From NCBI RefSeq assembly GCF_004010195.1, contig NC_057753.1, forward strand, positions 6,463,629 to 6,504,627: a stretch of 40,999 bases of DNA, given 5' to 3'. Below are positions 389 through 40,885 of this stretch, piece after piece. Made by a program: the position numbers and the translations under genes. The stretch is from Chiloscyllium plagiosum (lineage: Eukaryota). The notes under the pieces were generated by a model. That model did no database searches. It was not told the origin of the DNA and saw only the letters and a program-made list of their open reading frames with translations. Position 1 is the first letter of the stretch. Every line of letters starts with the position of its first letter.

Positions 389-535
389 GGAGAAAGTGAG
401 GTCTGCAGATGCTGGAGATCAAAGTTGAAACTTTATTGCTGGAACAGCACAGCAGGTCAGGCAGCATCCAGGGAACGTCGAATCTCCTGTTCCCTGGATG
501 CTGCCTGACCTGCTGTGCTGTTCCAGCAATAAAGT
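389..535. mobile_element. 147-bp palindromic mini-element derived from the Penelope family A terminal repeat, with a 16-bp target-site duplication
   Basis: Perfect 49-bp inverted repeat (428-476 / 489-537, 12-nt loop). Flanked by tttgctttcgatttaa (373-388) and tttgcttttgatttaa (536-551). The paralogous site (~18866-18881) has a single copy of the target and no insert. The arms match the terminal repeats at ~6690-6780 and ~14700-14797. Confidence 0.8.
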
Positions 536-1401
536 TTTGCTTTTGATTTAACCACGACAAATTGAATCCAAGTCACTGATACTATAATGTTTAAAAAAAT
601 ATATTACGATGGAGTGACTTCAGATGTCAGCTCATAAGAAACAGGTTGTGTTCTATTCTTTGGTTACACAAATGCAATAGAAAATCCAATATTAAGTCCT
701 TAAAAGGCAAGATTCCTGTAAATAGTCATCGGTATGTGTTGAATGTAATGATATCCTTAAGTTTTACTGATTCCAATAAAAAGAGTGATGATCCCTATTA
801 TTGCCGTTTATCCGGGAGAGAACATTGATCACTTCACTGCCTCACACACACATATAACGGGGCATGCCGGAAATCCGAAATGAAACCGACTCTAGCATCA
901 TTTGTGGAGAGAAAATAGAATTAAGTAGGCATGAAAGAATAATTGTGTTCACAGATGATGCCAGGCTTGCTCTGATTTCCCAGCAATGTGTATTTTTGTT
1001 GTCATAATCACTGGAAGTGAATTTTGTTCCTCATTAACAATGACCAACATGCCGCAATGTGCAACGAGTCTAAGAATGAAGATGAATGAAAGAAAGGAAT
1101 AGTTAATGCAACAGAATTTGAATGCACACTCGATTCATTGCTATTCCGTTAATAGTACACACATTTTCAGTCGAACGTTAAACTATCGAATGACAGAAAT
1201 ACAAAAATACTTTCTGGCATAAGGAGGCAATTCAGTCCACATTAAATGCACCTGCTTTTCAAGTAACAATGCCTGATGGCACTATGTTCAACCACTCTGC
1301 TTCCTTGAACATACAACGGACTAACTTGAAGATTTAAAGCTTTAGAGAAATACGCAGCTCATGGACAAAAACAAATAGCTTTACTCAGATTAGAAACTTA
1401 C

Positions 1402-6350: not shown

Positions 6351-6649
6351 TTGCAGATCCTCTGATTCCATGTGATCTCAGCTTAGTTAACATCCTACCA
6401 TATGGAAACTTATCAAAAGCCTTATAGAAATCATAGAGTCTAAGTCTACCACCTGCCCTCATTACCCTTCTTGGTCACTTCATCCAATGTTGCAATGTGT
6501 GTCAAATACATTAATCCGGGAGTGCAGAGGAATGAATTAGCGGCCATTGCTGAGGACTAAATGTTTATCTTCAGTGGCGGGAGGTCTGGGCTAATAGTGA
6601 AGACATGGAAAGGTTGGGAGCTAAGATATGGGATGGGGCTGGAGCTGGG

Positions 6650-6780
6650 TGTGGATGATGAAGAGCTTATGACCGAAACGTCGATTATCGTTCTCAGTCG
6701 ATGCTGCCTGATTGCTGTGCTTTTCCATCATGACATTATAGACTCTGATTTCCAGGATCTGCAGTCCTCACTTTCTCCAA
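6650..6780 (+). mobile_element. Penelope family A terminal repeat with a degenerate hammerhead motif
   Basis: atgatgaagagcttatgaccgaaacgtcgatt...gatgctgcctga...tctgcagtcctcactttctcc. Paralog at ~25540-25668. Confidence 0.65.
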
Positions 6781-7400: not shown

Positions 7401-7404
7401 TATT

Positions 7405-8605
7405 AGTTAAAAATAACAATACCAGGTTATAATCCAATAGTTTTAATTGGAAGCACATTAGGTTTTGGAGCGTCGCTCCTTCATCAGATGGTAGTGGAGG
7501 GCTTAGTCCTAACACACAGAATTTATAGCAAAAATTTAGTGTCATGTCACTGAAATTATGTATTGAATAATTGATTGCCTGTCAATCATTTCATCAGTTA
7601 GAATGCTGTGATATTTTCACTTGCTTCATGTGTAAATCACAAAATCTTTTTTTTTTAAATGTTGCATTCTCGGGTTCGCTGTTAACAATGGTGATAGACG
7701 ACAATATGTTGGCCCCCTGTGTTCTCTGTCGATGCCATGAATCTAATCTAAAAAGGGAGATTACGAAGTATGACATGAATTCATACATCTTTTGAGCTCA
7801 GAGGTCTACATGAATGCATGCAGTTTTTGAGAAAATTACAATGTAACGCTGCAAGTCCAAATTGACACAACAAAATATATGTGTGCATGTGGGTCTTTGT
7901 CTGTATGTGTGTTTGTGTGTGTCTCTCTGTCTGGGTTGGTGGTTGTGAGTGTGAGAAAGTGTATGTGTGTCTGCAGTGAATGCAGAGTGTCTTCCGTCTG
8001 TAAGGGGGTGCATGTGTGAGTGTGGGAGTGTGTGTCTGTGAGGGTGTGTGTGGGTGTCCGTGCGTATGTGTGTATACGAGTGCCTGTGTGTGAGTGAGAG
8101 TGTGAGTGTGTCGGAGTGTCTGTATGCGTGTATAGTGCAATGGTGGTCACCTGTATTGTGACATGAACCCAATGTCCCGGTTGAGGCCCTCCCTATGGGT
8201 ACCGAACTTCGCTATCAGCCTCTGCTCGGCCACCTTTTGCTGCTGCCTGTCGCGAAGTCTGCCTTGGAGGATGGTCATCCGAAGTTCCGAGGTCGAATGT
8301 CCTGGACCACTGAAGTGTTCCCCAACTGGGAGGGAACACTCTTGTCTGTTAATTGTTGTGCGCTGCCCACTCATCCGTTGTCATAGCCTTTGCTTAGTTT
8401 CCTCAATATACCATGCCTCCGGGCATCCTTGCCAGCCACTTATAAGACAGACAACGTTGACTATGTCACATGAGTACGTGCCACCTACATGATGGGAGGT
8501 GTCCCCACGTATAATGGTGGTATCTATGCCCACACTCTGACACGTCTTGCAGCGCTTACCGTGACAGGGGTGTATGAAGTTGTCCTGAGAGCTGGGCAGC
8601 ATGCT
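7405..8605 (-). mobile_element. 5'-truncated Penelope-like element (family B): GIY-YIG endonuclease, CA-rich tract and terminal repeat with hammerhead motif
   Basis: ORFs 8381-8656 and 8147-8374 read PCHGKRCKTCQ...YSCDIVNVVCLI...CPEAWYIEETKQRL*..PVGEHFSGPGH...EQRLIAKFGTHREGLN. (TG)n-rich tract at 7880-8135. Reverse-complement CTGATGAAGGAGCGACGCTCCAAAA at ~7456-7490. Confidence 0.85.
7880..8135. repeat. Degenerate (TG/CA)n microsatellite within the Penelope 3' region
   Basis: Interrupted gtgtgt runs; paralog at ~29595-29845. Confidence 0.85.
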
Positions 8606-9053
8606 ACGAAAATGAATGTGGGAGATGTAATTTGTAGACGGCAAAACGCCAGCCAAACCATTCCTCGTGAGGAATAAGGTTGTAGAATTATTTGTTTGGT
8701 TGGCTCGAAATGCATTCAGTTATTATTCAATCTGGAGAATGCTCGGATTCAGAACAGATCACTTGTTGTAAATCTGTATCCTGTGAACACAAACTGATGA
8801 ACACCTTGTTCTATTTTTTATTCGTTCGTGGGACTTTAGCGTCGCTGCCGACCAGCATGGGTAGCACACAACTATTTGTTCTTGATAAAGTCGTCTGGAG
8901 CTGCCTCACTTTAGAAATAGATTTGACTCAACATTGGTACTGAGATTACAATCAGACATTTAATGCATTGCCTGAGTTAAGATGACACATATTATTAGAT
9001 AGTTAAAAATCACACAACACCAGGTTATAGACCAACAGGTTTAATTGAAAGCA

Positions 9054-9088
9054 CACTAGGTTTCGGAGCGATGCTCCTTCATCAGGTG
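9054..9088 (-). ncRNA. Minimal hammerhead ribozyme motif (Penelope-type)
   Basis: Reverse complement is CAC-CUGAUGA-A-GGAGC-AUC-GCUCC-GAAA-CC-UA-GUG: intact CUGAUGA and GAAA core, 5-bp stem II, CAC/GUG stem I, minimal stem III. Confidence 0.65.
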
Positions 9089-9099
9089 ATTGTCCTGAT

Positions 9100-9134
9100 C
9101 GCCTGATTAAAGAGCTTCGCTCCGAAAGCTAGTG
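9100..9134 (+). ncRNA. Degenerate minimal hammerhead motif (core mutated to CUGAUUA)
   Basis: CGC-CUGAUUA-A-AGAGC-UUC-GCUCC-GAAAGCUA-GUG. Confidence 0.5.
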
Positions 9135-9359
9135 TGCTTCCAATTAAACATGTTGGACTATAACCTGGTGTTATGTGATTTTTAACTTTGTACACCCCAG
9201 TCCAACACCGGCATCTCCGAATCAAGCATATTATTAGATAGGCTAACTTCATCTTGAAAATACAATTCTGGGATTTCCATTTTAAAGAACATAAAACACC
9301 ATATCCCGTCAAAAAGAAGAAACTCTTAATCTAAATTTGTTTACGAGCTATAATCGGTT

Positions 9360-9542
9360 GTTGTGTGATTTTTAAATAGAGTTGTTTAATATAGTATAAC
9401 ATGACACTGTAACACTTGTGCTCTGCATTCTGTGCTGTGTGATCGTGTTCCACAGCCACCTGATGAAGAGACGGCGCTTCGAAAGCTCGTGTTTTTAAAT
9501 AAACCACTTAGGCTATAACATGTTGTTGTATGATTTTTTACA
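9360..9542 (+). mobile_element. Older Penelope family B terminal-repeat remnant with a hammerhead motif at 9457-9491
   Basis: CAC-CTGATGA-AGAGACGGCGCTTC-GAAAGCTC-GTG followed by ...ggctataacatgttgttgtatgattttt. Paralog at ~30830-31015. Confidence 0.6.
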
Positions 9543-9949
9543 ATGTTTTGCAGAAGGAGACACACATAGACTGGTGGTGATATGTATCAATGGGTATGTG
9601 GGGTTAGATAGACTGTGGAATGGATAAGTTGATGATTCCTCATTATAATGAATGCTGCAGCGGTTTCCAGCGCTCGAATGATATATTCCTGCTCATCCTA
9701 TGAGTTTTTGCATTTACTATCGCATGAGAACTCCTGTTTTTTGGGTGTGAATTCGTCATAGAAATGATCAAAATGTAACAACAACTGACTGCTTCCTGCA
9801 AGGCGACACGGTCTAGCTGTGATATCACCAAAGAGCCGATCTGACAGTTTGGACCATTAGCCGTTTGGTCATCTAGTCATAAATGTCGAGAATCAGCCAG
9901 AATTTTGTACAATCTTTTTTCCCAGGAAGTCGGGAAGGCAACAACTGTG

Positions 9950-10690: not shown

Positions 10691-12439
10691 TCAATGACTT
10701 TTCATACCTTGATACCCGCAGTGTTCTGACGAAATTATATCAATAGATCGACAAATAACAAATATCTGACAGAGAGTGACTCAAATGCAGTTTTCTTTGC
10801 ACCTCTTGGAATTATGGCAAAAAACAACATTTTCTTGCTTTCAGCTGATCCGGCATGAAATTTTGAACCTATCTCAATTTAACCCATTGCTAAACCTCCT
10901 TGAAATCTCCCACTTTGAAAAACAACGTTATTAAAATGACGGAATCTTCAATGACTTAACTTTATGATTATATCATTAGTGGTCAACGCGTGGGTGTATT
11001 TGTGAGTACTGAGAACGTGAAAGCAATTGGCTCAGTTTAAACATTTGTTCCAGGACATGCAAGTTGTGATATCTAAATTGGTCCTCATCACTTCCAAAAT
11101 TAATCTCACTGCTTGTGTTTCGATTCGACACGACGAAAGTGAACTGTCTAAATATTTTAAATATTCGAATGTTTCCCGCTATCTGCCATGGTGAATCCTC
11201 AACAATGTTTTGCATCCTCAGCTCGGTCAGGCAACAGTACGGTCAGGGAATCCTCCAATTTGAATCAGATTGGGCTTTCTACTTCCCTTCAAGCAATCAT
11301 GGAAAATTCAAGGAAATGTAAAATATACTTTACCTGTCCAGAGATATTTTAAGGCAGTACGAAACTTATCATTCCCTACACCTGTGGTAGTTGATCGTAA
11401 AGCATCCATGCAGAGAAATTAATTCTTATCAAAATGACCCCAGAGTTTTCAGCATCCAGTTCTGGAGTATGTTGGAAATCATGAACCACTATGGCCAGGA
11501 ATGTGAAAAGATTAAATTATTTCTTAACGTTTGTGATCTTTCCAAAATATCCTGTCTTTACAGACAGATGTCAACCAAAAACACGGACTACGTTTCTGTA
11601 CTTAAGTACATTGTGGTTTATTGCACATCACCAAGTTCTAGCTAAAAGTCGATTACTTTGAACTCGTAACTTTTAAAAAGACTAGGTTATTCCCTATTCC
11701 ACTTATAACGGTCACCCACATAGGCATTGAAATGCATGTGTGTGTATATATGTAATAAAATGCGATTATGTAGGGAGAGAGAGAGAAAAAAATACAGGAC
11801 GGTGTTACAATTACCCACAGAGTGCACTGAGGTGTTGTCTTTTTTTTTACTAATATTAGGCTGCTGTTGAGCACATCTCCAGCTCCTTTTCGATGGCTTG
11901 TGAAAGACATTGCATCATCACGTAGGACAGGAACGGAAGAAAAATCTTCAGTCCAACTACTTTCTACCACCCATAATTACTAACTGAACAGGTCACGTCT
12001 GCCTGGATTTGGTCCATCTGGCTTCGAATCTTTCCTATTCAAGGACATATCCAAACGTAGTTTTAACTTTGCAATGGAATCCGCACACATGACCTCCCCT
12101 GCCAATTCATTCTGCACACTGACCACCCTCAATGCAAAAGATGTCCCCTCTCAGGTCTTTGAATAACTCTCATCTCACCTTAAAATTGTATCCTCTAGTC
12201 TCAACATACCCCAGTCAAGCAAAAGATCACTTAGCGTTAAATTTAGCGATAAACCTCATGTTCTTATACACCTGTAAGTTCACCGTTCAACTTACAAAGC
12301 TGCAGCGAAAATAAATACTTTGCCTTTCAAGTTATTCCTGAGAAGTCAAAGGTTCCATACCCTCAGCATGCTGGTTAAAAAAAAAAATGCTGAACTTTCC
12401 CAACTTCGTTATAAAGCATTCCAATAACCAGAACAATTG

Positions 12440-12662
12440 AGGACAGCAGACTGCAGAAGCTGCAGATCAGAGTCAAAAATTGTGTTGTTGAAAAAATACA
12501 GTCGGTCATAGAGCATCCGAGGAGCAGGAGACCCGATGTTTCTAGCAGAAGCACGTTCTCAGGAATGCGTGATGAAGAGCTAATGCACAAAACGTTGACT
12601 CTCACTCTCTGCAGACGTTGCCTGAACGGCTGTGGTTTTCTAGCAACAGAATGTTTGGCTCT
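12440..12662. mobile_element. Old, degenerate palindromic pair of Penelope family A terminal repeats
   Basis: Left arm gaagctgcagatcagagtc...gagcatccgaggagcaggagacccgatgtttc...ctcaggaatg, then an inverted arm tgatgaagagctaatgcacaaaacgttgactctc...gttttctagcaacaga. Paralog at ~33632-33857. Confidence 0.6.
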
Positions 12663-13618: not shown

Positions 13619-13846
13619 CAAGGGCCCTGTAATTTCCTCCCTAATTTTCCAGAATGTTCTGAGACATGCGACATCAGGTCACTGTAACGTATCGATATCT
13701 ATATTTTCTAAGACATTCAACACTTCCTGGTCCAAGGGCCCTGTAATTTCCTCCCTAATTTTCCAGAATGTTCTGAGACATGCGACATCAGGTCACTGTA
13801 ATGTATCGATATCTATATTTTCTAAGACAGTCAACACTTCCTGGTC
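13619..13846 (+). repeat. 114-bp tandem duplication (2 copies, 2 mismatches)
   Basis: caagggccctgtaatttcc...cacttcctggtc starts at 13619 and again at 13733. Unit 2 has a single copy (~34814-34927). Confidence 0.95.
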
Positions 13847-14044: not shown

Positions 14045-14797
14045 TTGTCCCCTGTCCCTGCCACAGCGGGAAGTGCAACACCTGCCCCTGCATCGTCCCC
14101 TCATCTCCATCTAAGATCCCAAAGAATCCTTTCACATCTGACAGAAATTAACCTGTACCTCCACAAATGTCAATTGCCGTATACGTTACACTTGATGTGT
14201 CCGTCTGTACATTGCGGAGAGTGGATGTAAACTTGTGGATCGTTTCAGAGAACTTCGCTGGGACACCGCACCAACCAACCCCATTGCCCTGTGGTTGAAC
14301 ACTTCAACTCTCCCACACACTCCACCAAGGACATGCAAGTCCTGGGCCTCTTCCATCGCCAAACCTTAACCATCCAAAGCCTGAAGGAAGACGCCTCTTC
14401 TTCTGCCTTTGTAAAATACAAACATACCGGATTAAAATAGACTTCATAAGTTTCCTCATTTCCTCTTCCCTCAGTTTATCTCAGTCCCAAGACTCCAACT
14501 CGATAAAACCTGCTGGAACTATCAATCGGCTTTCCCATCTTTATGTTCCCCCCATACCTCTGACCTATAATCTTCCCCCCACCTTCATCTACCTATTGTC
14601 TTCTCAGCTACCGTTTCACGAACCCCTCCACCTTGCATTTATCTCTCTGACCTCCGCCCACAAGCCTCATTCCGGGCGACAGTTTGATGACTGAAACTCG
14701 ATTCACCTTCTCCTCGGTTACTGCTTGACATGGTTTGCTTTTCCAGTACCACATTTCCGACTCTGATCTCCAGCATCTGCACTCCTCACATTTTCCC
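14045..14797 (+). mobile_element. 5'-truncated, decayed Penelope-like element (family A): GIY-YIG region plus terminal repeat
   Basis: PCHSGKCNTCP...TCTSTNV..IR...LYIAE...DRFRE...NQPHCPVVEHFNSPTHSTKDMQVLGL, ending in ctctgatctccagcatctgcactcctcacattttcc. Confidence 0.8.
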
Positions 14798-17551: not shown

Positions 17552-20099
17552 TCAGTTTGATTGTTTCTTGATAAACACAACAAGTAATGTCAGAGGATAT
17601 GTCAATGTAAGTTTTAGCTCTTCTCTGAACTTAGATTGTGTTACCACGTAAATGAACGTGTTTGTGCAGCAGCTTAAATTACGCAGCATATATGCCAAGT
17701 TCTCAAATACATAAGCAGACGGGCCATCTAATAGCTCATCAACATCAAAAAAATATAAAACATCGATGAACCACAGAAGTATGAAGCTGCTGAATATGGT
17801 GAAGAGCAAAATGATAGACTTCCTTCTGCTCTCAGCTCCAGAGTCTCCCTTGCTGTGACATTTGAGTCATTTACGGATTCGACTGGCCACTAAAATATAA
17901 CTGACTGTTGCACCGTTGAGAAACAGAATTAACCCAAATGGTATCAACGGTGTTAAAATCTTCTCAAATGTACAAAATCCAATCCATCTCGAGTCAGTGA
18001 AATAGCTTGATCTATTAGAACAGCGCCAAGGTATGTTGTTGATAATCCTCTGTGGTCTAAACCTAAAGTATATTGGAATATTTTTCAAACCGAGAAAAAT
18101 CCCTGTTGTTAGGAGAATCACTGTTGCAGTTTTCTTGGTACAATTGTGAGATTTCAACTTTGGGCAACAAATAACAATAAATAGACAAAAGTGAAAATGA
18201 CAGTGAACCAGACAGAACAGTCTGTGGCAGCGCGGAGCAGAACACAGTGAATACTGCACACAGGAGTGATTTTCAGGAAAGTTAATGGAAAATAATAATC
18301 ATTGATTCTGTTCAGTACAACGTCAGTAATGATGAAGAGGAGATCTGCTGTTGTCATGGCCAACAGGTAGCGAGTCATGCAGGTTGATAGCCCACAGTTT
18401 TCCTGTGACATGACTAAAACTGAAAGTAAATTCACTGGAAGAGGACAAGAACATGTATTTGGTAATGATTTTTTTTCTGTTTCTGATCAGCCATTAAGAA
18501 CTTTTCGCTAGAGAAGTATGCATTTGGCATCATCACAGAGTTGAAAGGAATGGAAAAATTAACTGTGTGGCAATGTAAATTGATTCATGATTGCTGAGAA
18601 GAATTCTCCATTCGTAAGCATTAACCATTTAATATCTACACACGTATATGTTGGTACTGCGGCAGCGACAAGATACACTGAGCAATGAATCCAGTCTGAC
18701 TGATAACTGCACACTTTCAAGCTTAAAATTTTGGGATCTCATCCAATGTCAGGTTAATCCTGTGCAGTATGACGACAGGTTCAATATTTATGCAAGAACT
18801 TATATATGTAATTAACTTTCACTTTTCACTTCTAGTCGTATTATCTGAGCTTACAGAAAACAACCTTTGGTTTTGTTTTAACCACTGCAAATTGAATCCG
18901 AGTCACTAATACTATAGTCTTTCAGAAAGTATATTACAATGGAGTGATTTCAGATTTCAGCTCATAAGAAATAGGTTGTGCTCTATTCTTTGGTTACACA
19001 AATGCAGTGCAAATATCCCATATTGAGTCCTCAAAAGGTAAGATTCCTTTAAATAGGGATATGGAGAAGATAATTTAACTGTCAATTTTCTAAAATCAAA
19101 GTTTACCACTTTAAAATTGCCAATGATAAATATACAGTAAAGTGGTATTTAAGTCCAAGAATGTTTACCTTATGCAATTATTGGTACATGGAATAATTGA
19201 GAACATTAGCTTCCGTGAGATAAGACATAAAAATTGCAACAATGGCAGGACGTGCCAGTTGCCTTAGATGAGATGTAGTAGATGGAAGCTTTCATGGATC
19301 AAACAGTCTGTTATTACTTCATTGAACGAAAAGTGTTCAGTTTTGCCCTTTGAAATCTGACTTAAGCCTAATTGAGCTACATTAGTTGCATTCCCTCACA
19401 GTCATCTGTATGTATTGAATGTGATGATATTCTTAAGTTTTACCGATTCCAATAAAAAGAGTGATATTCCCCATTACTACTCTTTATCCGGGAGAGAACA
19501 GTGATCACTTCACTCCCTCACACACAAATCCGAAATAAAACCAACTCTTGCTTCATCTGTGGAGGGAAAATAGAATTAAGTAGACATGAAACATTAACTG
19601 TGCTCACAGATGATGCCAGGCTTGCTGTGAGTTCCCAGCAATGTGTATTTTTGCTGTCATAATCACTGGAAGTGAATTTTGTTCCTCATGAGCAATGACC
19701 AACATGCCGCAATGTGCACCGAGTCTAAGAATGAAGCTGAATGAAAGAAAGGAATAGTTAATACAACAGAATTTGAATGCATTCTCGATTCATTGCTATT
19801 CCGTTAATAGTACACACAGTTTCAGTAGAACGGTAAACTATCGAATGACAGAAATACAAAGATACTTTCAGGCAGAAGGAGGCAATGCAGTCCATAATAA
19901 ATGCACCTGCTCTCCAATTAAAAATGATTAACGAAACTATGTTCAACCATTCTGCTTCCTTGAACATACAACGAACTAACTTGTAAGATGAAAAGCCTTC
20001 GAGAAATAGCTTTACTCAGATCAGAAACTTACCAGGAACTCAAATCATGGCAAGAATTAGATAGTATACTTTCCTCACCATTTGAATAGGGAGATGCAT
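17552..20099 (-). pseudogene. GPR139/GPR142-like class A (rhodopsin-family) GPCR pseudogene, copy B; exon 1 at 20033-20099, exon 2 at 17552-18434
   Basis: GT-AG intron 18435-20032 (gtaag donor, cttgtcctcttccag acceptor) joins VP|VNLLSVLV in phase 1. Seven hydrophobic segments with YLLAMTTADLL (TM2), PVCS..DCSVWFTVIFTF (TM3), LTPLIPFGLILFLN (TM5), SRRKSIILLFTI..FILLW (TM6) and LSCCTNTFIY..QSKFREEL (TM7/H8). Lesions: TGA at 20040-20042, a 1-nt deletion at ~18185 and TGA at 17867-17869. The repaired ORF is ~316 aa. Confidence 0.9.
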
Positions 20100-25095: not shown

Positions 25096-25669
25096 GAACA
25101 ACAAGATCCAAACTCCTCCAACGGGTTCCTGATTAGATCTCTTTGGAACTCACTGCCCACATGGCTCCAGTCTGACAAACGTTCATCCACTAATACTGCC
25201 TTTTTCCTACAAACAAGCTAATTGTATGCCCACTTTTTGCAGATCCCCTGATTCAATGTGATCTCAGCTAAGTTAACATCCTACCATGTGGAAACTTATC
25301 AAAAGCCGTATAGAAATCATAGAGTCTAAGTCTAACACTTGCCCTCGTTACCCTTCTTGGTCACTTCATCCAATGTTGCAATGTGTGTCAAACACATTAA
25401 TCCGGGAGCGGAGAGATTTGAATTAGCGGCCATTGCTGAGAACTAAATGTTTATCTTCACTGGCGGGAGGTCTGCGGTAATAGTGAAGACATGGAAAGGT
25501 TGGGAGCTAGGAGATGGGATGGGGCTGAGGCTGGGTGTGTGGGTGATGAAGAGCTTATGACCGAAAGGTAGATTCTCCTTCTCCGTGGATGCTGCTTGAT
25601 TGCTGTGCTTTTCCATCATGACACTGTAGACTCTGACTTCCGGATTACAGTCCTCACTTTCTCCAAGGA

Positions 25670-26899: not shown

Positions 26900-29100
26900 T
26901 GTCAGTAGATCCATCCGAGATGTTAATCGCAGTTCCATTTTATCGGTGATGGCTGTGTTTACAGAGTGGAGTTACAGAGAGGTCGTCATGCTGCAGGTAC
27001 AAGAGGAAGGGAGATTGGTTGACGTCAGTGGATGGAAAGTGAATCTGCAGGCAGTGCAGAGACCCTTGCGGCCGTTTCCCTTAATAAGTATACCGTTTTG
27101 GATATTGTTGAGAGGCACAGCTTACAAGGGTAAGCACTGGGGCCTCTTGCCATCTTCTTTGTTCTTACTTACATATCTAAATCCCAGCACATACAACAAC
27201 CATTATTGTCCCTGCTCTATTCATGTTTCCGAAAGGGTAAGCAATGGGGCATAGCTCTCTGACACAAACGTTGGTCCTCTTGCTCAGGAGTGAAGGAGAA
27301 AGAGGAGCAGAACACTAGTCTATGGGGACTCCACAGTCAGGGGACAGAGATGAGGTTGTGTGGGGACGACAAAGACGCACGATTGTTGCGCTACCACTCA
27401 GGTGCCTGGATTCATGATGTCTCTGATCGTGTTTGCGGGATCCTCGACGTGGGGGGTGAACAACCCATGTCGTGGTCCAGATAGGCACCAGTGTCACAGG
27501 TAAGAAGAGAGACGGGGATTTAAGGTTGAAATTCAGGAAGATGGGTTGAGGGTAAAAGTTAGAAGAAACAGTGTTTTTACCTCTCGCTTGTTGCACGTGC
27601 CACATCCTCCGGAGGCACGGTGTCGGGAGAGATTGCAGTTGAACAGGTGGCTGCAGGGATGGTGCATGAGGCAGGGTTTTGGATTACTGGATAATTGGTG
27701 CTGTTTCTGTGGTAGGTGGGAGCTGTACAAACAGGATGATGCGCACCTGAACCAGAGGGGTCGCAATAACTTGATGCGGGTGGGGATTTTTTGCACATCT
27801 TTGAGTGGGCAGAAACTAATTTAGCAGAGTGTCGGGAACCTAAACTGTAGTTTCAGTTTCCAGGAGGTTGTTAGTTGAGATGAAATAAATAAGATTCTCA
27901 AGGTCTCAAGGTCTCAAGAAGTTGAATGTAAAGTGTCTACTTCAATGCCTGGAACATCAAGAAAACGTTGGTTGAACTTGCAACATGGGTTGGTATCTGG
28001 AATTTCGATGTTGTGCGGAGACATCATGAATCCAGGCATCTGATTGGTACCGCAACAATCGTGAGTCTCTGTAGTTCCCAGACAACCTCATCTCTGTCCC
28101 CTGACTATGGAATCCCCAGACACAAGTGCTCTGCACCTCTTTCTCCTTCACTCCTGAGCAAGAGGACCAACGTTTGTGCCAGAGAGCTATGCCCCATTGC
28201 TTACCCTTTCGGAAACATGAATAGAGCAGGGACAAAAATGGTTGTTGTATGTGCTGGGATTTAGATATTTCAGTCAGAACAAAGAAGATGGCAAAAGGGC
28301 CGGGTGTTGAGATATTGCTAAACAACGATATATGGGGGGTAGACACTAACCTGGAAATTATAGACCAGCGAGCTATACTTCGGTTGTGGGGAAAGTACTG
28401 GAAAAGGTATAAGATTTGCATTTATAATCCAGAGAGGAATAAGTTGATAAGTGATTGTCAACACGGTTTCGTGAAGGGTAGGTCGTGCCTGATAAACCAT
28501 TTTGAGTTCCTTTAGAAGGTGACCAAACAGGTGAATGAAGGTAAAGCAGTTGATGTCGTATATGTGGATTTCAGTGAGGCATTTGATAAGCTTCCCCGCG
28601 GTCGTCTATTCCACAAAATATGGTGTCATGTGATTGAGAGTGTTACAGCGGATTGGTTCGCTGAAAGAATACAGAGAGTGGTGATTGATATGAAATGTTG
28701 ATCCTGGCATTCTCTTGTCAGTAGTGTACCGCAAGGTTCTGTTTTGGGGCCACGGCTCTTTGTCATTTTGCAAGATGAATGGGTGAGGCCTTGGAAGGAT
28801 GGTTTAGTAAATGTGCGGGTGACACTAATTAGGTAATGTTATGGACAGTGTCGAATGATGTTGTTGATTACAGAGGGAAACAGATAATCTGCATTGCTGG
28901 TCTGAGTGGTATTAAATAGATTTGAATCCAGAAAATTGTGATGTGATTCGCCTTGGAAGGCGCAACAGGATTAAAGTGTACTGGGCTGATGGCAAGTTTT
29001 TTGGTTGTGTCGATGAACAAAGAGACCTTGGTGTCCATGTACATCGACACGTGAAAGTTTCCACCACGGTTGGTTGGGCTGTTAAAAAGGATACGATGCG
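26900..29100 (+). mobile_element. Rearranged CR1-type LINE: ORF1 SGNH/GDSL esterase, start of the ORF2 AP-endonuclease and an RT fragment
   Basis: Esterase-like pieces (VYGDS..GTEMRLCG...GAWIHDVSDR; LNRWLQGWCMRQGF...ELYKQDDAHLNQRG). Endonuclease start (VELATWVGIWNFDVV). RT pieces (LISDCQHGFVKGRSCLINHFEF; AVDVVYVDFSEAFDKLP). Contains frameshifts and stops. Confidence 0.8.
27140..28301. repeat. ~285-bp inverted repeat (27140-27424 / 28016-28301) inside the CR1 copy
   Basis: ggcctcttgccatcttctttgttct...ggattcatgatgtctc is the diverged reverse complement of gagacatcatgaatcc...agaacaaagaagatggcaaaagggcc. Confidence 0.9.
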
Positions 29101-29111
29101 TTCCATGTTAT

Positions 29112-30325
29112 TAGTTAAAAATCTCACAACACCAAGTTATAGTCCAATATATTTAATTGGAAGCACACGAGCTTTCTGAGCGTCGCTCCTTCATCAGGTC
29201 GTAGTGGAGGGCTCAATCGTAACACACAGAATTTATAGCAAAAATTTACAGTGTAATGTACATAAAATTATACATTGAAAAATTGATAGTTTGTGAAGCC
29301 TTTCATCTGTTAGAATATCGTGATAGCTTCACTTCTTTCATGTGTAATATACAAAATCTATTTTTAAAAGTTGCATTCTCGGGTTAGCTGTTAACTATGG
29401 TGATAGCAATATGCTGCACGTGTTCGCCCCCCGTGTTCACCGTTAATGCAATGCATCTAATCTAAAAAGTGAGATAATGGAGTTTTTCATGAATTCATGC
29501 AGTTTTTGAGCTCATAGTTCTACGTGAATGCATACAGTTTTTGAGAAAATTACAATGTAACCCTGCACGTACAAATTGAGATCACAAAATATATGTGTGC
29601 ATGTCGGTCTTTGTCTGTCTGTGTGTGTGTATGTCTGTCTGGGTTGGAGGTTGTGAGTTCGAGAAAGTATATGTGAGTGTGTAGTTAGTGCAGAGTGCCT
29701 TCCGTCTGTGAGGGGATGCTTGTGTGAATGTGGGAGTGTGTGTGTCTGTAAGGGTGTGTGCGGGTGTCCGTGTGTATGTGTGCATAGGAGTGCCTGTGTG
29801 TGTGTGAGAGTGTGTGTGGGTCGGAGTGTCTGTATGTGTGTAAAGTGCAATGGTGGTCACCTGTAATGTGACATGACCCCAAGTTCCCGGTTGAGGCCCT
29901 CCCTATGGGTAAAGAACTTAGCTATCAGCGTCTGCTCGGCCAGTTTGCGCTGCTGCCAATCCCGAAGTTTGCCTTGGAGGATAGTCACCCGAAGTTCCGA
30001 GGTCGAATGTCCTGGACCACTGAAGTGTTCCCCAACTGGGAGGGGACACTCCTGTCTGTTGATCGTTGTGTGGTGCCCATTCATCAGTTGTCGTAGCCTT
30101 TGCTCGGTTTCCCCAATATACCATGCCTCCGGGCATCCTTGCCTTAAACGTATAAGATCGACATCGTTGGCTGAGTCACATGAGCACCTGCCAAGAACAT
30201 GATCGCAGGTGTCCCCATGTGTAATGTTGGTATCAATGTCCACACTCTGACACGTCTTGCAGCGCCTACCGTGACAGGATTGTATGCAGTTGTCCTGAGA
30301 GCCGGGCAGCTTGCTACGAAAATGA
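29112..30325 (-). mobile_element. 5'-truncated Penelope-like element (family B), paralog of 7405-8605; GIY-YIG frame still open (29857-30387); hammerhead motif at 29166-29200
   Basis: SCHGRRCKTCQ...CPEAWYIGETEQRLRQLMNGH...PVGEHFSGPGH...EGLNRE. Reverse-complement CTGATGAAGGAGCGACGCTCAGAAAGCTCGTG. Confidence 0.85.
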
Positions 30326-31454
30326 ATGTGGGAGATGGTATTTGCAGACGGCAAAACGCCAGCCAAACTATTCCTCGTGAGGAACAAGGTTGTAGAATTA
30401 TTTGTTTAGTTGGCTCGAAATGCTATCAGTTATTATTCAATCTAGAGAATGTTCGGATTCAGAACGGATCACTTGTTGAAGATCTGTAATCCGTGACCAC
30501 AGTCTGATGAACACGTTGTTCAATTTTGAATTCGTTTGTGGGACTTCAGCGTCGCTGCCGACCACCATGGATAGCTCACCGCTATTTGCTCTTGATAAAG
30601 TCGTCTTGAGCTGCCTCACTTTAGAAATAGATTTGACTCAACATTGTTACTGAGATTGCAATCAGACATTTAATGCATTGCCTGAGGTAAGATGACACCT
30701 TTTTTAGATAGGCTGACTTCATCTTGATAATGTAATTCTGGATTTCCATATTAAAGAACATAAAACACCATATCCCGTTCAAAAAGATGGAGGGCTTAAT
30801 CTAAATTTGTTTACGAGCTATAATCTGTTGTTGTGTGATTTTTAAATAAAGTTGTTTCACATATCATAACAACTCCATGACACTGTAACAATTGCGCTCT
30901 GCATTCTGTGCTGTGCGGTCGTGTTCCACAGCCACCTGATGACGAGGCAGCGCTTTGAATGCTAGTGTTTTTACATAAACTAGTGAGACAAGAACATGGT
31001 GTTGTATGATCTTTAACAATGTTTTACAGGAGAAACACGTAGACTGGTGGTAATATGTATCAATGGGTATGAGGGCTTAGATAGACAGTGGAATGGATTG
31101 GCCGATAAGCCCTGATTATAATGAATGCTGCAGTGGTTTCCAGCGCTCGAACGATATATTCCTGCTCATCCTTGGAGTTTTTGCATTGACTATCGCATTC
31201 GAACTCCTGTTTTTTGGGTGTGAATTCGTCATAGAAATGATCAAAAATGTAACAAGTACTGACTGCTTCCCGCAAGGCGACACAGTCCAGCTGTGATCTG
31301 ACCAAAAAGCCAATCTGAGAGTTTGGACCATCAGCCGTTTGATCATCTTGTCATACATGTCGAGAATCAGCCAGATGTTTGTACAGACTTTGTTCCTAGG
31401 ACTTCAAGTACTCATTCGCAAATTGGGAGCCAGGAATTCTGGAAGGCAACAACT

Positions 31455-32511: not shown

Positions 32512-33108
32512 NNNNNNNNNNNNNNNNNNNNNNNNNNNNNNNNNNNNNNNNNNNNNNNNNNNNNNNNNNNNNNNNNNNNNNNNNNNNNNNNNNNNNNNNN
32601 NNNNNNNNNNNNNNNNNNNNNNNNNNNNNNNNNNNNNNNNNNNNNNNNNNNNNNNNNNNNNNNNNNNNNNNNNNNNNNNNNNNNNNNNNNNNNNNNNNNN
32701 NNNNNNNNNNNNNNNNNNNNNNNNNNNNNNNNNNNNNNNNNNNNNNNNNNNNNNNNNNNNNNNNNNNNNNNNNNNNNNNNNNNNNNNNNNNNNNNNNNNN
32801 NNNNNNNNNNNNNNNNNNNNNNNNNNNNNNNNNNNNNNNNNNNNNNNNNNNNNNNNNNNNNNNNNNNNNNNNNNNNNNNNNNNNNNNNNNNNNNNNNNNN
32901 NNNNNNNNNNNNNNNNNNNNNNNNNNNNNNNNNNNNNNNNNNNNNNNNNNNNNNNNNNNNNNNNNNNNNNNNNNNNNNNNNNNNNNNNNNNNNNNNNNNN
33001 NNNNNNNNNNNNNNNNNNNNNNNNNNNNNNNNNNNNNNNNNNNNNNNNNNNNNNNNNNNNNNNNNNNNNNNNNNNNNNNNNNNNNNNNNNNNNNNNNNNN
33101 NNNNNNNN
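32512..33108. other. Assembly gap (597 N)
   Basis: Run of N. The flanks correspond to unit 1 positions ~11051 and ~11863. Confidence 0.99.
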
Positions 33109-33631
33109 CAGTCGAGCACATCTCCAGCTCCTTTTCGCTTGCTTGCTAAAGACAGAGCGTCATAATGTAGTACAGCAACGAAAGAAAAACCTTCAGTCCA
33201 ACTACTTCCTACCGTCCAGAATTAGAAACTGAACAGGTCACGTCTGCCTGGATTTGGTCCATCTGGCTTCGAATCTTTCCTATTCATGGACATATCCAAA
33301 CGTAGTTTTAACATTGCACACATGACCACCCCTGCGAATTCATTCTGCACACAGACCACCCTCTATGCAAAAGATGTCCCCTCTCATATCTTTGCATATC
33401 TCTCATCTCACCTTAAAATTATTCCCTCTGGTCTCAACGTACCCCAGTCATGGTTTTATATAGCTATAAGTTCACCGTTCAACCTCCAAAGCTTCAGTGA
33501 AAATGAATACTCAACCGTTCAAGTTATTCCTGAGAAGTCAAAGGTTCCATAACCCTCAGCATCCTGGTTAAAAAAAAAAACATGCTGAACTCCCCAATTT
33601 CATTATATAGCATTCCAATAATCGGAACATT

Positions 33632-33857
33632 TGAGGACTGCAGACTTTAGAAGCTGGAGATCAGAGTCAAAAATTGTGGTGTTGGAAAAGCACAGCTGGT
33701 CAGACAGCATGCGATGAGTAGGAGACCCGATGTTTCTCGCAGAAGCACTTCCTCAGGAATGCGTGACGAAGAGCTTATGCACCAAACGTTGACTCTCCCT
33801 CTCTGCCGATGCTGCCTGTACGGCTGTTGGTTTTCTAGCAACAGAATTTTTGACCCT
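33632..33857. mobile_element. Old palindromic pair of Penelope family A terminal repeats (paralog of 12440-12662)
   Basis: gaggactgcagac..gctggagatcagagtc...ggaaaagcacagctggtcagacagcat, then the inverted arm tgacgaagagcttatgcaccaaacgttgactctcc...gatgctgcctg...ttttctagca. Confidence 0.6.
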
Positions 33858-35129: not shown

Positions 35130-35866
35130 TGTCACCTTCCCCACCACAGCAGGAAGTGCACAACCTGCCCCTCATCATCTCCTCACCTCCATCTAAGACC
35201 CCAAAGAATCCTTTCACATCTAACAGAAATTTACCTGTACCTCTAAAAATGTCAATTACTGTATCCGTTGCACTTGATGTGGTCGTCTGTCGATTGCAGA
35301 GAGTGGATGTCAACCTGTGGATCGTTTCAGAGAACCTCGCTTCGAAACCCTCACTAACCAACCCCATTGCCCTGCGGTGGAACACTTCAACTCTCCCACA
35401 CACTTCACCAAGCTCATGGAAGTTCCTGGGCCTCTTCCATCGCCAAACCTGAGCGATCCAAAGACTGAAGGAAGAACGCCTCTTCTTCTGCCTTTGAAAA
35501 GTGCAACTACACCGGATTAAATGGACTTCATACGTTTCCTCATTTCCTCTTCCCTCACTTTATCTCAGTCCAAAGACTCCAACTTGATAAAATCTGCTGG
35601 ATCTATCAATCGGCATTCTCATCAATGCATTCCCCCCCATCTCTGACCTATATCCTTCCCCCACCTTCATCTACCGATTGCCTTCTCAGCTACCTTCCCG
35701 GGAACCCCACCCACTTACATTTCTCTCTCAAACATCCTCCCACAAGCCTCATTCCGGACGACAGTCTGATGACTGAAACTCGATTCTCCTGCTCCTCGGT
35801 TACTGCTTGACATTGTTTGCTTTTCAGACTCTGATCTCCAGCATCTGCAGTCCTCACATTCTCCCG
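35130..35866 (+). mobile_element. Decayed Penelope family A element (paralog of 14045-14797)
   Basis: HHSRKCTTCP; DRFRE..TNQPHCPAVEHFNSPTHFTKLMEV. Terminal ctctgatctccagcatctgcagtcctcacattctcc. Confidence 0.8.
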
Positions 35867-38491: not shown

Positions 38492-38991
38492 NNNNNNNNN
38501 NNNNNNNNNNNNNNNNNNNNNNNNNNNNNNNNNNNNNNNNNNNNNNNNNNNNNNNNNNNNNNNNNNNNNNNNNNNNNNNNNNNNNNNNNNNNNNNNNNNN
38601 NNNNNNNNNNNNNNNNNNNNNNNNNNNNNNNNNNNNNNNNNNNNNNNNNNNNNNNNNNNNNNNNNNNNNNNNNNNNNNNNNNNNNNNNNNNNNNNNNNNN
38701 NNNNNNNNNNNNNNNNNNNNNNNNNNNNNNNNNNNNNNNNNNNNNNNNNNNNNNNNNNNNNNNNNNNNNNNNNNNNNNNNNNNNNNNNNNNNNNNNNNNN
38801 NNNNNNNNNNNNNNNNNNNNNNNNNNNNNNNNNNNNNNNNNNNNNNNNNNNNNNNNNNNNNNNNNNNNNNNNNNNNNNNNNNNNNNNNNNNNNNNNNNNN
38901 NNNNNNNNNNNNNNNNNNNNNNNNNNNNNNNNNNNNNNNNNNNNNNNNNNNNNNNNNNNNNNNNNNNNNNNNNNNNNNNNNNNNNNNNNNN
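38492..38991. other. Assembly gap (exactly 500 N, probably a fixed-size scaffolding gap)
   Basis: Run of 500 N. The orientation of the paralogous sequence flips across it. Confidence 0.95.
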
Positions 38992-40521: not shown

Positions 40522-40885
40522 TGAAAGCGTAAAATGGATATGCTGATTCATTAAGCTTAAAGAGAAATTTCTGGTGAACACACAAGGCTTGGAACCATCT
40601 GTGAAGAAATGAAAAAAAGCACAGGGAACATTTCCACTTCAATGCACTATTAATAACGACTCAATGCCAGCCTCAAACCGATATAAACACTGCCCAAAAT
40701 GTTGAAAGTGTAAAATGGATATGCTGATTCATTAAGCTTAAAGAGAAATTTCTGGTGAACACACAAGGCTTGGAACCATCTGTGAAGAAATGAAAAAAAG
40801 CACAGGGAACATTTCCAGTTCAATGCACTATTAATAACGACTCAATGCCAGCCTCAAACCGATATAAACACTGCCCAAAATGTTG
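40522..40885 (+). repeat. 181-bp tandem duplication (2 mismatches)
   Basis: tgaaag(c/t)gtaaaatggatatg...ctgcccaaaatgttg starts at 40522 and again at 40703. Units 1 and 2 have a single copy. Confidence 0.95.

Follow-up and report, generated by a model that had tools for sequence, protein, structure and literature searches.

How does a 224-bp non-coding insert, palindromic and carrying two hammerhead motifs, come to lie between two copies of one target sequence in a shark genome? A preliminary description of this locus in Chiloscyllium plagiosum had offered two answers, namely an extreme product of truncation and inversion during Penelope integration, or a MITE- or retrozyme-like family that moves as a unit. 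The window considered here is the whole stretch of 40,999 nucleotides (41 kb) in which the insert lies, and it was compared with public sequencing runs. We put the probability at roughly 85% that the locus is a single, now inert, 5'-truncated and inverted insertion of a Penelope-like element (PLE), of which the terminal repeat alone was copied twice, head to head.

Anatomy of the insert

The insert occupies positions 9003-9226, which confirms the length of 224 bp first reported. It is flanked by catattattagatag, a sequence found exactly twice in the 41-kb window (8988-9002 and 9227-9241), and the chance of such a duplication is about 5e-7, even with five bases of slack per junction. While the 15-base match is exact, as had been described, the last two bases of the left copy (9001-9002) double as the terminal bases of the element, and the target-site duplication therefore measures 13-15 bp. 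Positions 9001-9090 pair with 9098-9187 without gaps and with nine mismatches in 90 (81/90 complementary), and the insert is predicted to fold into one long hairpin of -128.5 kcal/mol (z = -17.8; 0 of 200 shuffles equal it). The two inverted arms of about 90 bp are thus real, but they do not make up the whole insert. On the right side only, an unpaired extension of 39 bp (9188-9226; 37 bp of tail and two extra bases) lies outside the arm and has no counterpart on the left.

Also the centre needed revision. Part of the presumed spacer, 9091-9093, is element sequence, as reads of the family match up to 9093, which leaves a filler of only four bases (9094-9097) that was probably made from the element's own sequence. 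Alternatively, judged from the sequence and the loose ends of the family, 9091-9096 fits the sense strand of the family a few bases further upstream. Four sites that vary within the family are in the same state on both arms (9089/9099, 9071/9117, 9044/9144 and a 2-base indel at 9052/9132), which is what a single type of template would give. The junction between tail and flank was found in contigs from two studies of organism A, and the insert is therefore not an assembly artefact. The X1 contig over the filled right junction (9202-9330) has a depth of 105, against 13-24 for most of the listed X1 pieces (one other reaches 99). Six of the contig's 129 bases differ, and the filled unit itself may be duplicated in that organism.

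Table 1. Features of the insert, its empty paralogous site and related PLE ends in the window
Feature	Position	Strand	Remarks
Left target-site duplication	8988..9002	+	exact match to 9227-9241; family contigs leave the reference at 9001/9002
Inverted, tail-less PLE terminal repeat copy (pLTR end)	9001..9093	-	ends 8 bases upstream of the hammerhead core
Putative polyadenylation site region	9025-9045	-	mirror 9143-9163; family-level, run X21
Minimal type-I hammerhead motif, left arm	9054..9088	-	core C3 at 9085, predicted cut after 9057
Inversion junction filler, 4 bases	9094..9097	.	9094-9099 repeats 9102-9107
Direct PLE terminal repeat copy	9098..9187	+	begins 5 bases upstream of the hammerhead core
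Minimal type-I hammerhead motif, right arm	9100..9134	+	core C3 at 9103; G8 changed to U (9108)
PLE tail, 37 bases, this arm only	9188..9224	+	departure points of family contigs: 9189-9191, 9218 and 9224
Two extra bases between tail and duplication	9225..9226	+	unmatched by family continuation or left flank
Right target-site duplication	9227..9241	+	contigs crossing the tail into the flank in runs X1 (9202-9330) and X2 (9167-9278)
Empty paralogous target site, tandem unit 2	30698..30711	+	flanks align on both sides without insert
Older, longer 5'-truncated PLE of a related subfamily	7404..8701	-	GIY-YIG remnant, 3' region, terminal repeat; paralog 29112-30405
Fold-back, second PLE family	389-537		tail on left; arms 428-537 94% complementary; centre downstream of hammerhead core
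Older fold-back, second family	33624-33857		paralog 12430-12662; present in both units
Single-arm end with tail, second family	6634-6778 / 25537-25664		likeness to other copies begins at hammerhead core (6656)
Single-arm end with tail, second family	14056-14796 / 35215-35864		follows GIY-YIG-like remnant

The tandem setting and the empty site

The window consists of two tandem units of about 19-21 kb each and an inverted partial third. As had been observed before, the site in unit 2 that is paralogous to the insert is empty, and the flanks are joined there across a single diverged target copy that is alike at 12 of 15 positions (30698-30711). Units 1 and 2 differ by 11.7% substitutions over seven long blocks, which is close to the 10% divergence of the arms, and the insertion thus probably took place soon after the units were duplicated, a loose estimate that is drawn from 9 mismatches in 90. 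The target is AT-rich and present in a single copy at the empty site, and the ends of the family likewise lie in AT-rich flanks of low agreement. Two contigs of run X13 stop at 9002 and then run on; these may be empty sites in organism B, a matching joint being absent among the joints displayed.

A 2.8-kb segment found only in unit 2 contains a 284-bp inverted repeat (27140-27423 and 28018-28301; 92%, about 600 bp apart). Local tandem duplications at 13619-13846 (114 bp, 98%) and 40522-40885 (183 bp, 99%) are near-identical and are either recent or assembly artefacts, and gaps of N lie at 32512-33108 and 38492-38991. A frameshifted pseudogene of a rhodopsin-family (7tm_1) receptor is present on the minus strand at 17552-18486, with fragments at 1391-1468 and 20034-20099, and its portion 17771-18441 is 63-72% alike to the 7tm_1 part of Chiloscyllium proteins. 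In the related Chiloscyllium gene models P0007-P0009 such a receptor is fused to the PLE endonuclease, and these chimeras are probably annotation artefacts.

The hammerhead motifs

The two motifs face opposite strands and are only about 17 bases apart. At the level of the family, the motif has the CUGANGA and GAAA boxes, stem II, a short helix I and an extra base before stem II. Across the six copies in the window 44 of 48 cells are paired, three of them with double changes, which is weak evidence as the sequences are related. The palindromic helix-III residues AGCU are found in the right arm and, at the G position, in four of the six window copies, whereas they are broken in the left arm and in the copy at 7405.

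The left core had been called intact, and CUGAUGA and GAAA are indeed in place (Table 1), but the helix-III palindrome of this arm is broken at 9060 and reads ACCU instead of AGCU. At this base the family differs from the insert in 307,432 of 324,770 of the summed depth in run X1 (about 95%) and in 1,041 of 1,067 plus-strand first mates in run X21. The right motif is mutated, as already noted, by a U at G8, and additionally its first stem II pair is broken (9111); the family base at 9108 is G in 114,554 of 115,136 of the summed X1 depth. A G8 mutation is reported to abolish cleavage in the lizard element (PMC11167929), and the left arm, being without self-complementary helix-III residues, has lost those needed for the dimer. 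According to fold predictions, forcing the hammerhead helices within the insert costs 42.6-42.9 kcal/mol relative to the 90-bp hairpin. With mutations in the core or in helix III, and with this penalty of about 43 kcal/mol, ribozyme activity at the insert locus is predicted to be very unlikely. The Rfam hammerhead models, which had been suggested for the arms, gave no match in the window (E up to 1) or in either arm (E up to 10), as is expected for motifs without helix III. Both hammerheads are damaged, and the locus appears to have decayed neutrally.

Could the hairpin itself have been retained for a host function, for example as a small-RNA precursor or an editing substrate? Its fold is very stable, as the z of -17.8 indicates, and its tail-to-flank junction is found in two studies of organism A. 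The mismatches between the arms are nevertheless uncompensated and about as frequent as neutral change would make them (10%, compared with 11.7% for units 1 and 2), the Rfam matches, to microRNA hairpins and to other models, are all sub-threshold, those to microRNAs far below gathering scores, and there is a paralog without insert. We consider such an exaptation very improbable.

The element behind the terminal repeat

The arms are 84% alike to the end at 7404-7490 and 86-87% alike to that at 29112-29199. The previously noted match to the end of a GIY-YIG element is hence correct, but this element does not stop at 8605, as its GIY-YIG remnant extends to at least 8701. Both 7404-8701 and its paralog 29112-30405 are, by their sequence, relatives of the insert's element and not its donor, because the sequence upstream of their hammerhead differs and RNA reads show two continuations. 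In run X21, 308 reads continue after 9090, like the 29112 copy, while 426 match to 9093 and then continue into the element body, and these represent the subfamily of the insert.

The open reading frame 29860-30405 (minus strand) resembles GIY-YIG clusters at 0.95-0.96, with the family on 13-18% of the members. Among 334 longer candidates, 12 proteins were found for it, three of which have a precomputed reverse transcriptase (RT) domain. The homologue P0006 (882 aa) has RVT_1 above the cut-off, and P0010 has RVT_1 and GIY-YIG, both below it. These homologues link the terminal repeat to an element that would encode an RT together with a GIY-YIG endonuclease at the C-terminus, the window copies of the insert's family themselves retaining no RT. 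Pfam gave no match in eight window ORFs, and a search of solved structures gave a single match with E 0.27, which was disregarded. An older subfamily with the same terminal repeat is found at 9348-9378 and 9394-9544 (paralog 30776-30845 and 30865-31020), apparently a stub and then a longer copy in the same direction, and its copy at 9457-9492 retains both boxes and AGCU.

Other fold-backs in the window

A profile search yielded seven distinct PLE-end insertions in the window, with unit duplicates merged and one short stub excluded, and three of these seven are fold-backs. All three carry the tail on one arm only, and they have three different centres. In two of them both arms come to a stop no more than about 8 bases upstream of the core, and the centre of the third is downstream of the core. 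The fold-back at 389-537 has a 17-bp duplication with two mismatches, and its paralog near 18866-18881 is empty. It scores 52 bits against the mir-15 model (gathering score 57.3) and is a likely source of false microRNA calls. The older fold-back at 33624-33857 contains two head-to-head hammerhead remnants, a tail on one arm and a 10-bp duplication with one mismatch. For the four PLE ends in the window that are not fold-backs, no convincing target duplications were found. The GIY-YIG-like remnant of the second family (14056-14374) has weak tblastn matches with E 2e-4 to 9e-4.

With 20 bases of the insert's arm as a motif, collections of viral, metagenome and prokaryote sequences gave no match. 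The second family's motif, also 20 bases long, hit 17 metagenome loci, all of which match only 20-26 bases around the pattern, and they were dismissed as chance.

Family copies in public sequencing runs

Contigs of the public DNA runs X1, X2 and X13 were matched to the insert at 85% likeness, and 53,848 (X1), 48,198 (X2) and 52,738 (X13) of them match the arms; the PLE of the insert is a very abundant shark retrotransposon. The loose ends of these contigs pile up at few positions. On the left, 435 and 283 X1 contigs end at 9001 and 9002, and 415 X13 contigs end at 9001. On the right, 310 (X13) and 171 (X2) end at 9189-9191, and in X1 701 and 1,151 end at 9218 and 9224. The sequence beyond the loose ends is AT-rich with an agreement of 0.34-0.44, and this low agreement points to many different flanks. 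Taken as a whole, these piles represent 3' ends of two sorts, tail-less and tailed. The contig ends seen at 9054 and 9134 were considered as ends at the ribozyme cut site and rejected, as they reflect a 2-base family indel.

A jump from the left to the right arm on the same strand was counted as another head-to-head copy. Among 15 displayed joints of 629, 12 are of this kind and all 12 are different; the remaining three, on opposite strands, were set aside, at least one of them being a family indel. Nine more different arm-to-arm pairs are found among 12 displayed of 594. The preliminary description had asked whether many copies share both ends and the central spacer, and had held that junctions which all differ would mark independent truncation products rather than a family. 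The outer ends are indeed common to the copies, but all 21 of the 21 displayed junctions differ and none dominates. The variable centres are those of a displayed sample, not of a whole-genome census of copies with their duplications. Joints are supported by 1-2 contigs per run in the joint table, and most have fewer than 30 letters on the short side; some are common to several runs and organisms, as single loci would be. Three of 12 displayed table rows end at 9091-9092 with at most seven extra letters. Together with two of the three fold-backs in the window, they lend small support to inner ends that gather just in front of the core, in a count that is biased because the reference ends there.

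Copies with nearly the insert's own centre would not appear as joints, and it is here that a small non-autonomous PLE family has to be weighed, in which read-through transcripts of one fold-back locus would be inserted anew by the PLE protein as whole units, giving copies with the same centre. Any copy of the whole palindrome must cross 9104, where the summed depth, which does not equal copy number, is 2,724 (X1), 1,143 (X2) and 840 (X13). The X1 value is well above the right-flank depth of 105-272 in the same run, and tens of copies with a similar centre, be it a small family or segmental duplicates, are therefore possible. Moreover, the tail at the end of the insert's plus strand is intact and includes its start sites, PLEs of a non-autonomous kind are on record (PMC8557442), and pLTRs are reported to be able to move cargo in trans (PMC3846280). 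Set against the arms, though, the centre is minute: well-matched arm bins reach 4-9.5 million of summed depth in X1, so that the centre has less than 0.1% of the arm depth, and even this is in part due to plain copies with a single arm that were placed on the right one; 9,686 X1 contigs fit in two places. Of about 158,000 pieces 24 are listed, and the centre is not spanned by any of these, a weak indication. The template would be a 90-bp double-stranded hairpin, and no RNA reads of the flanks were found in the portion of run X21 that was covered (2%). Taken together, we regard a family of this kind as improbable.

Run X21 consists of poly(A)-selected RNA. Its family reads have poly(T) loose ends, 286 at 9025 and 268 at 9028, that fall 12-15 bases past an AUUAAA/AAUAAA hexamer where there is no genomic A-run. 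A functional polyadenylation site seems to be present in the pLTR, upstream of the first start of reverse transcription by 24-27 bases, and polyadenylated RNAs would then be without both start sites. These reads stem from other copies of the family, possibly from few loci.

Origin of the palindrome

The architecture of the insert is one that has already been published for PLEs (Arkhipova 2013; Cervera 2014; Craig 2021; Frangieh 2024). Craig 2021 describes an inverted 5'-truncated copy with a 30-40-bp tail at one end only (PMC8557442), and Arkhipova 2013 gives rotifer examples of such complex units with 8-10-bp duplications (PMC3846280). The insert shares with these complex insertions the head-to-head, 5'-truncated and inverted pLTR, the one-sided tail of 30-40 bp, the heavy 5' truncation and the duplication, here at an AT-rich site. 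Its duplication of 13-15 bp differs from the rotifer cases in the text of those reports, as do the lack of coding sequence between the arms and the shark host. Cervera and De la Pena 2014 report minimal hammerheads in PLE repeats and opposite-strand pairs 100-700 bp apart (PMC4209133). The motifs of the insert agree with theirs in the type-I core, the extra base before stem II, the short helix I and, in the right arm, the palindromic residues in place of helix III, but, unlike the pairs reported there, they lie about 17 bases apart and are both mutated at conserved positions. In Poseidon of Anolis carolinensis (PAc), Frangieh 2024 found the tail to lie between two reverse-transcription start sites (PMC11167929). 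The AT-rich target, the two start sites that bound the tail and the upstream hammerhead recur in the shark family, whereas inverted products are not treated in the main text on PAc, and the decayed insert copy, different from PAc, has no open frame from the hammerhead through the tail. A search of titles, covering few subscription papers or repeat databases, found no published title on shark fold-back stubs, and the supplements of PMC4209133 and PMC11167929 may show similar ones.

That the insert is an independent truncated PLE insertion is very likely, and the one-sided tail, the fixed outer ends and the variable centres uphold the earlier suggestion of an extreme truncation and inversion during Penelope integration. 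One caveat is that both arms stop 5-8 bases from the core, which random truncation would rarely give. The following course of events is proposed. The endonuclease of the element would nick both strands of an AT-rich target with a stagger of 13-15 bases, and each freed 3' end would prime reverse transcription on element RNA, one at the tail end (9224) and the other at the tail-less start (9001). The left priming would use a match of two bases between target and template, and the right one would add two untemplated bases. Each cDNA would break off once about 90-130 bases had been copied, close to the hammerhead's front edge; relative to C3, the stops would lie 8 and 5 bases upstream (on the right 16, if 9091-9096 is element sequence and a small deletion followed later). 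They would then be joined via a few filler bases, and repair would leave the duplication. The palindrome would hence be a by-product that is made anew with each insertion, after which the locus decays neutrally.

The two-ended priming step specifically is, in our view, only somewhat better than an even bet. It is preferred since the outer end of the inverted arm coincides exactly with one of the priming sites, and, more generally, outer ends at fixed start sites combined with a variable centre favour priming from both target strands. Purified lizard PLE protein is reported to nick and extend both strands, with starts at two sites that bound the tail, although the main text has no case of the two strands of a single target molecule both being extended (PMC11167929). 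The same truncated PLE origin would also permit a mirror arm that stems not from a second priming at the target but from fold-back or self-priming, either on the first cDNA or on an antisense template. The latter is the course preferred in PMC3846280, where it was proposed from palindromes at inverted junctions, and the near-symmetric centre does resemble a hairpin tip. A self-copying cDNA has, however, no obvious cause to stop at 9001/9002, and yet the outer end of the inverted arm is exactly this commonest tail-less boundary of the family, as in the plain copies at 7404 and 29112. Also the very unequal arms among the displayed joints (e.g. 9090 to 9176, 9023 to 9112) are not easily reconciled with self-priming. 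We think that self-priming is possible but rather unlikely.

The remaining answer of the preliminary description would call for a DNA transposase that moves the insert as a MITE, or for a retrozyme cycle via self-cleaved circular RNA. It takes its appeal from an insert that is short, non-coding, palindromic and flanked by a duplication, with hammerhead motifs inside. Indeed, animal non-LTR retrozymes are described as short non-coding hammerhead repeats related to PLE pLTRs (PMC7229834; bioRxiv 10.64898/2026.07.22.740005). Membership in the MITE class does not fit, as the inverted repeats are not terminal, 37-39 unpaired bases lying outside the right arm, and as the centres differ in 21 of 21 displayed joints, a sample and not a census. 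Both ends of the insert are PLE reverse-transcription boundaries, and the duplication of 13-15 bp speaks against this answer as well. According to these reports, a retrozyme consists of tandem units joined head to tail and gives rise to circular RNA, and the animal ones carry canonical type-I motifs (PMC7229834). In contrast, the minimal hammerheads of the insert are head to head on opposite strands and both mutated, so that there is no same-strand dimer and no transcript with two sense copies. We therefore abandon this answer as scarcely credible.

Significance

The insert is a real but ordinary, dead retroelement stub. As a speculative extension, which we rate as unlikely, such stubs would be direct footprints of a symmetric process, in which a PLE complex that is a dimer and holds two RNAs carries out target-primed reverse transcription from both ends. 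The self-complementary helix-III residues of the minimal hammerhead would then serve chiefly to dimerise the RNA and less to cut it, and both cDNAs would stop at the hammerhead's front edge because the paired templates begin or block there. If true, this would explain the inverted pLTR, the one-sided tail and the retention of a barely cleaving ribozyme. Such stubs mimic MITEs and microRNA hairpins, and recognizing them averts mis-annotation in shark genomes. For the PLEs themselves, the stub is one of very many natural end-products that constrain how these elements integrate.
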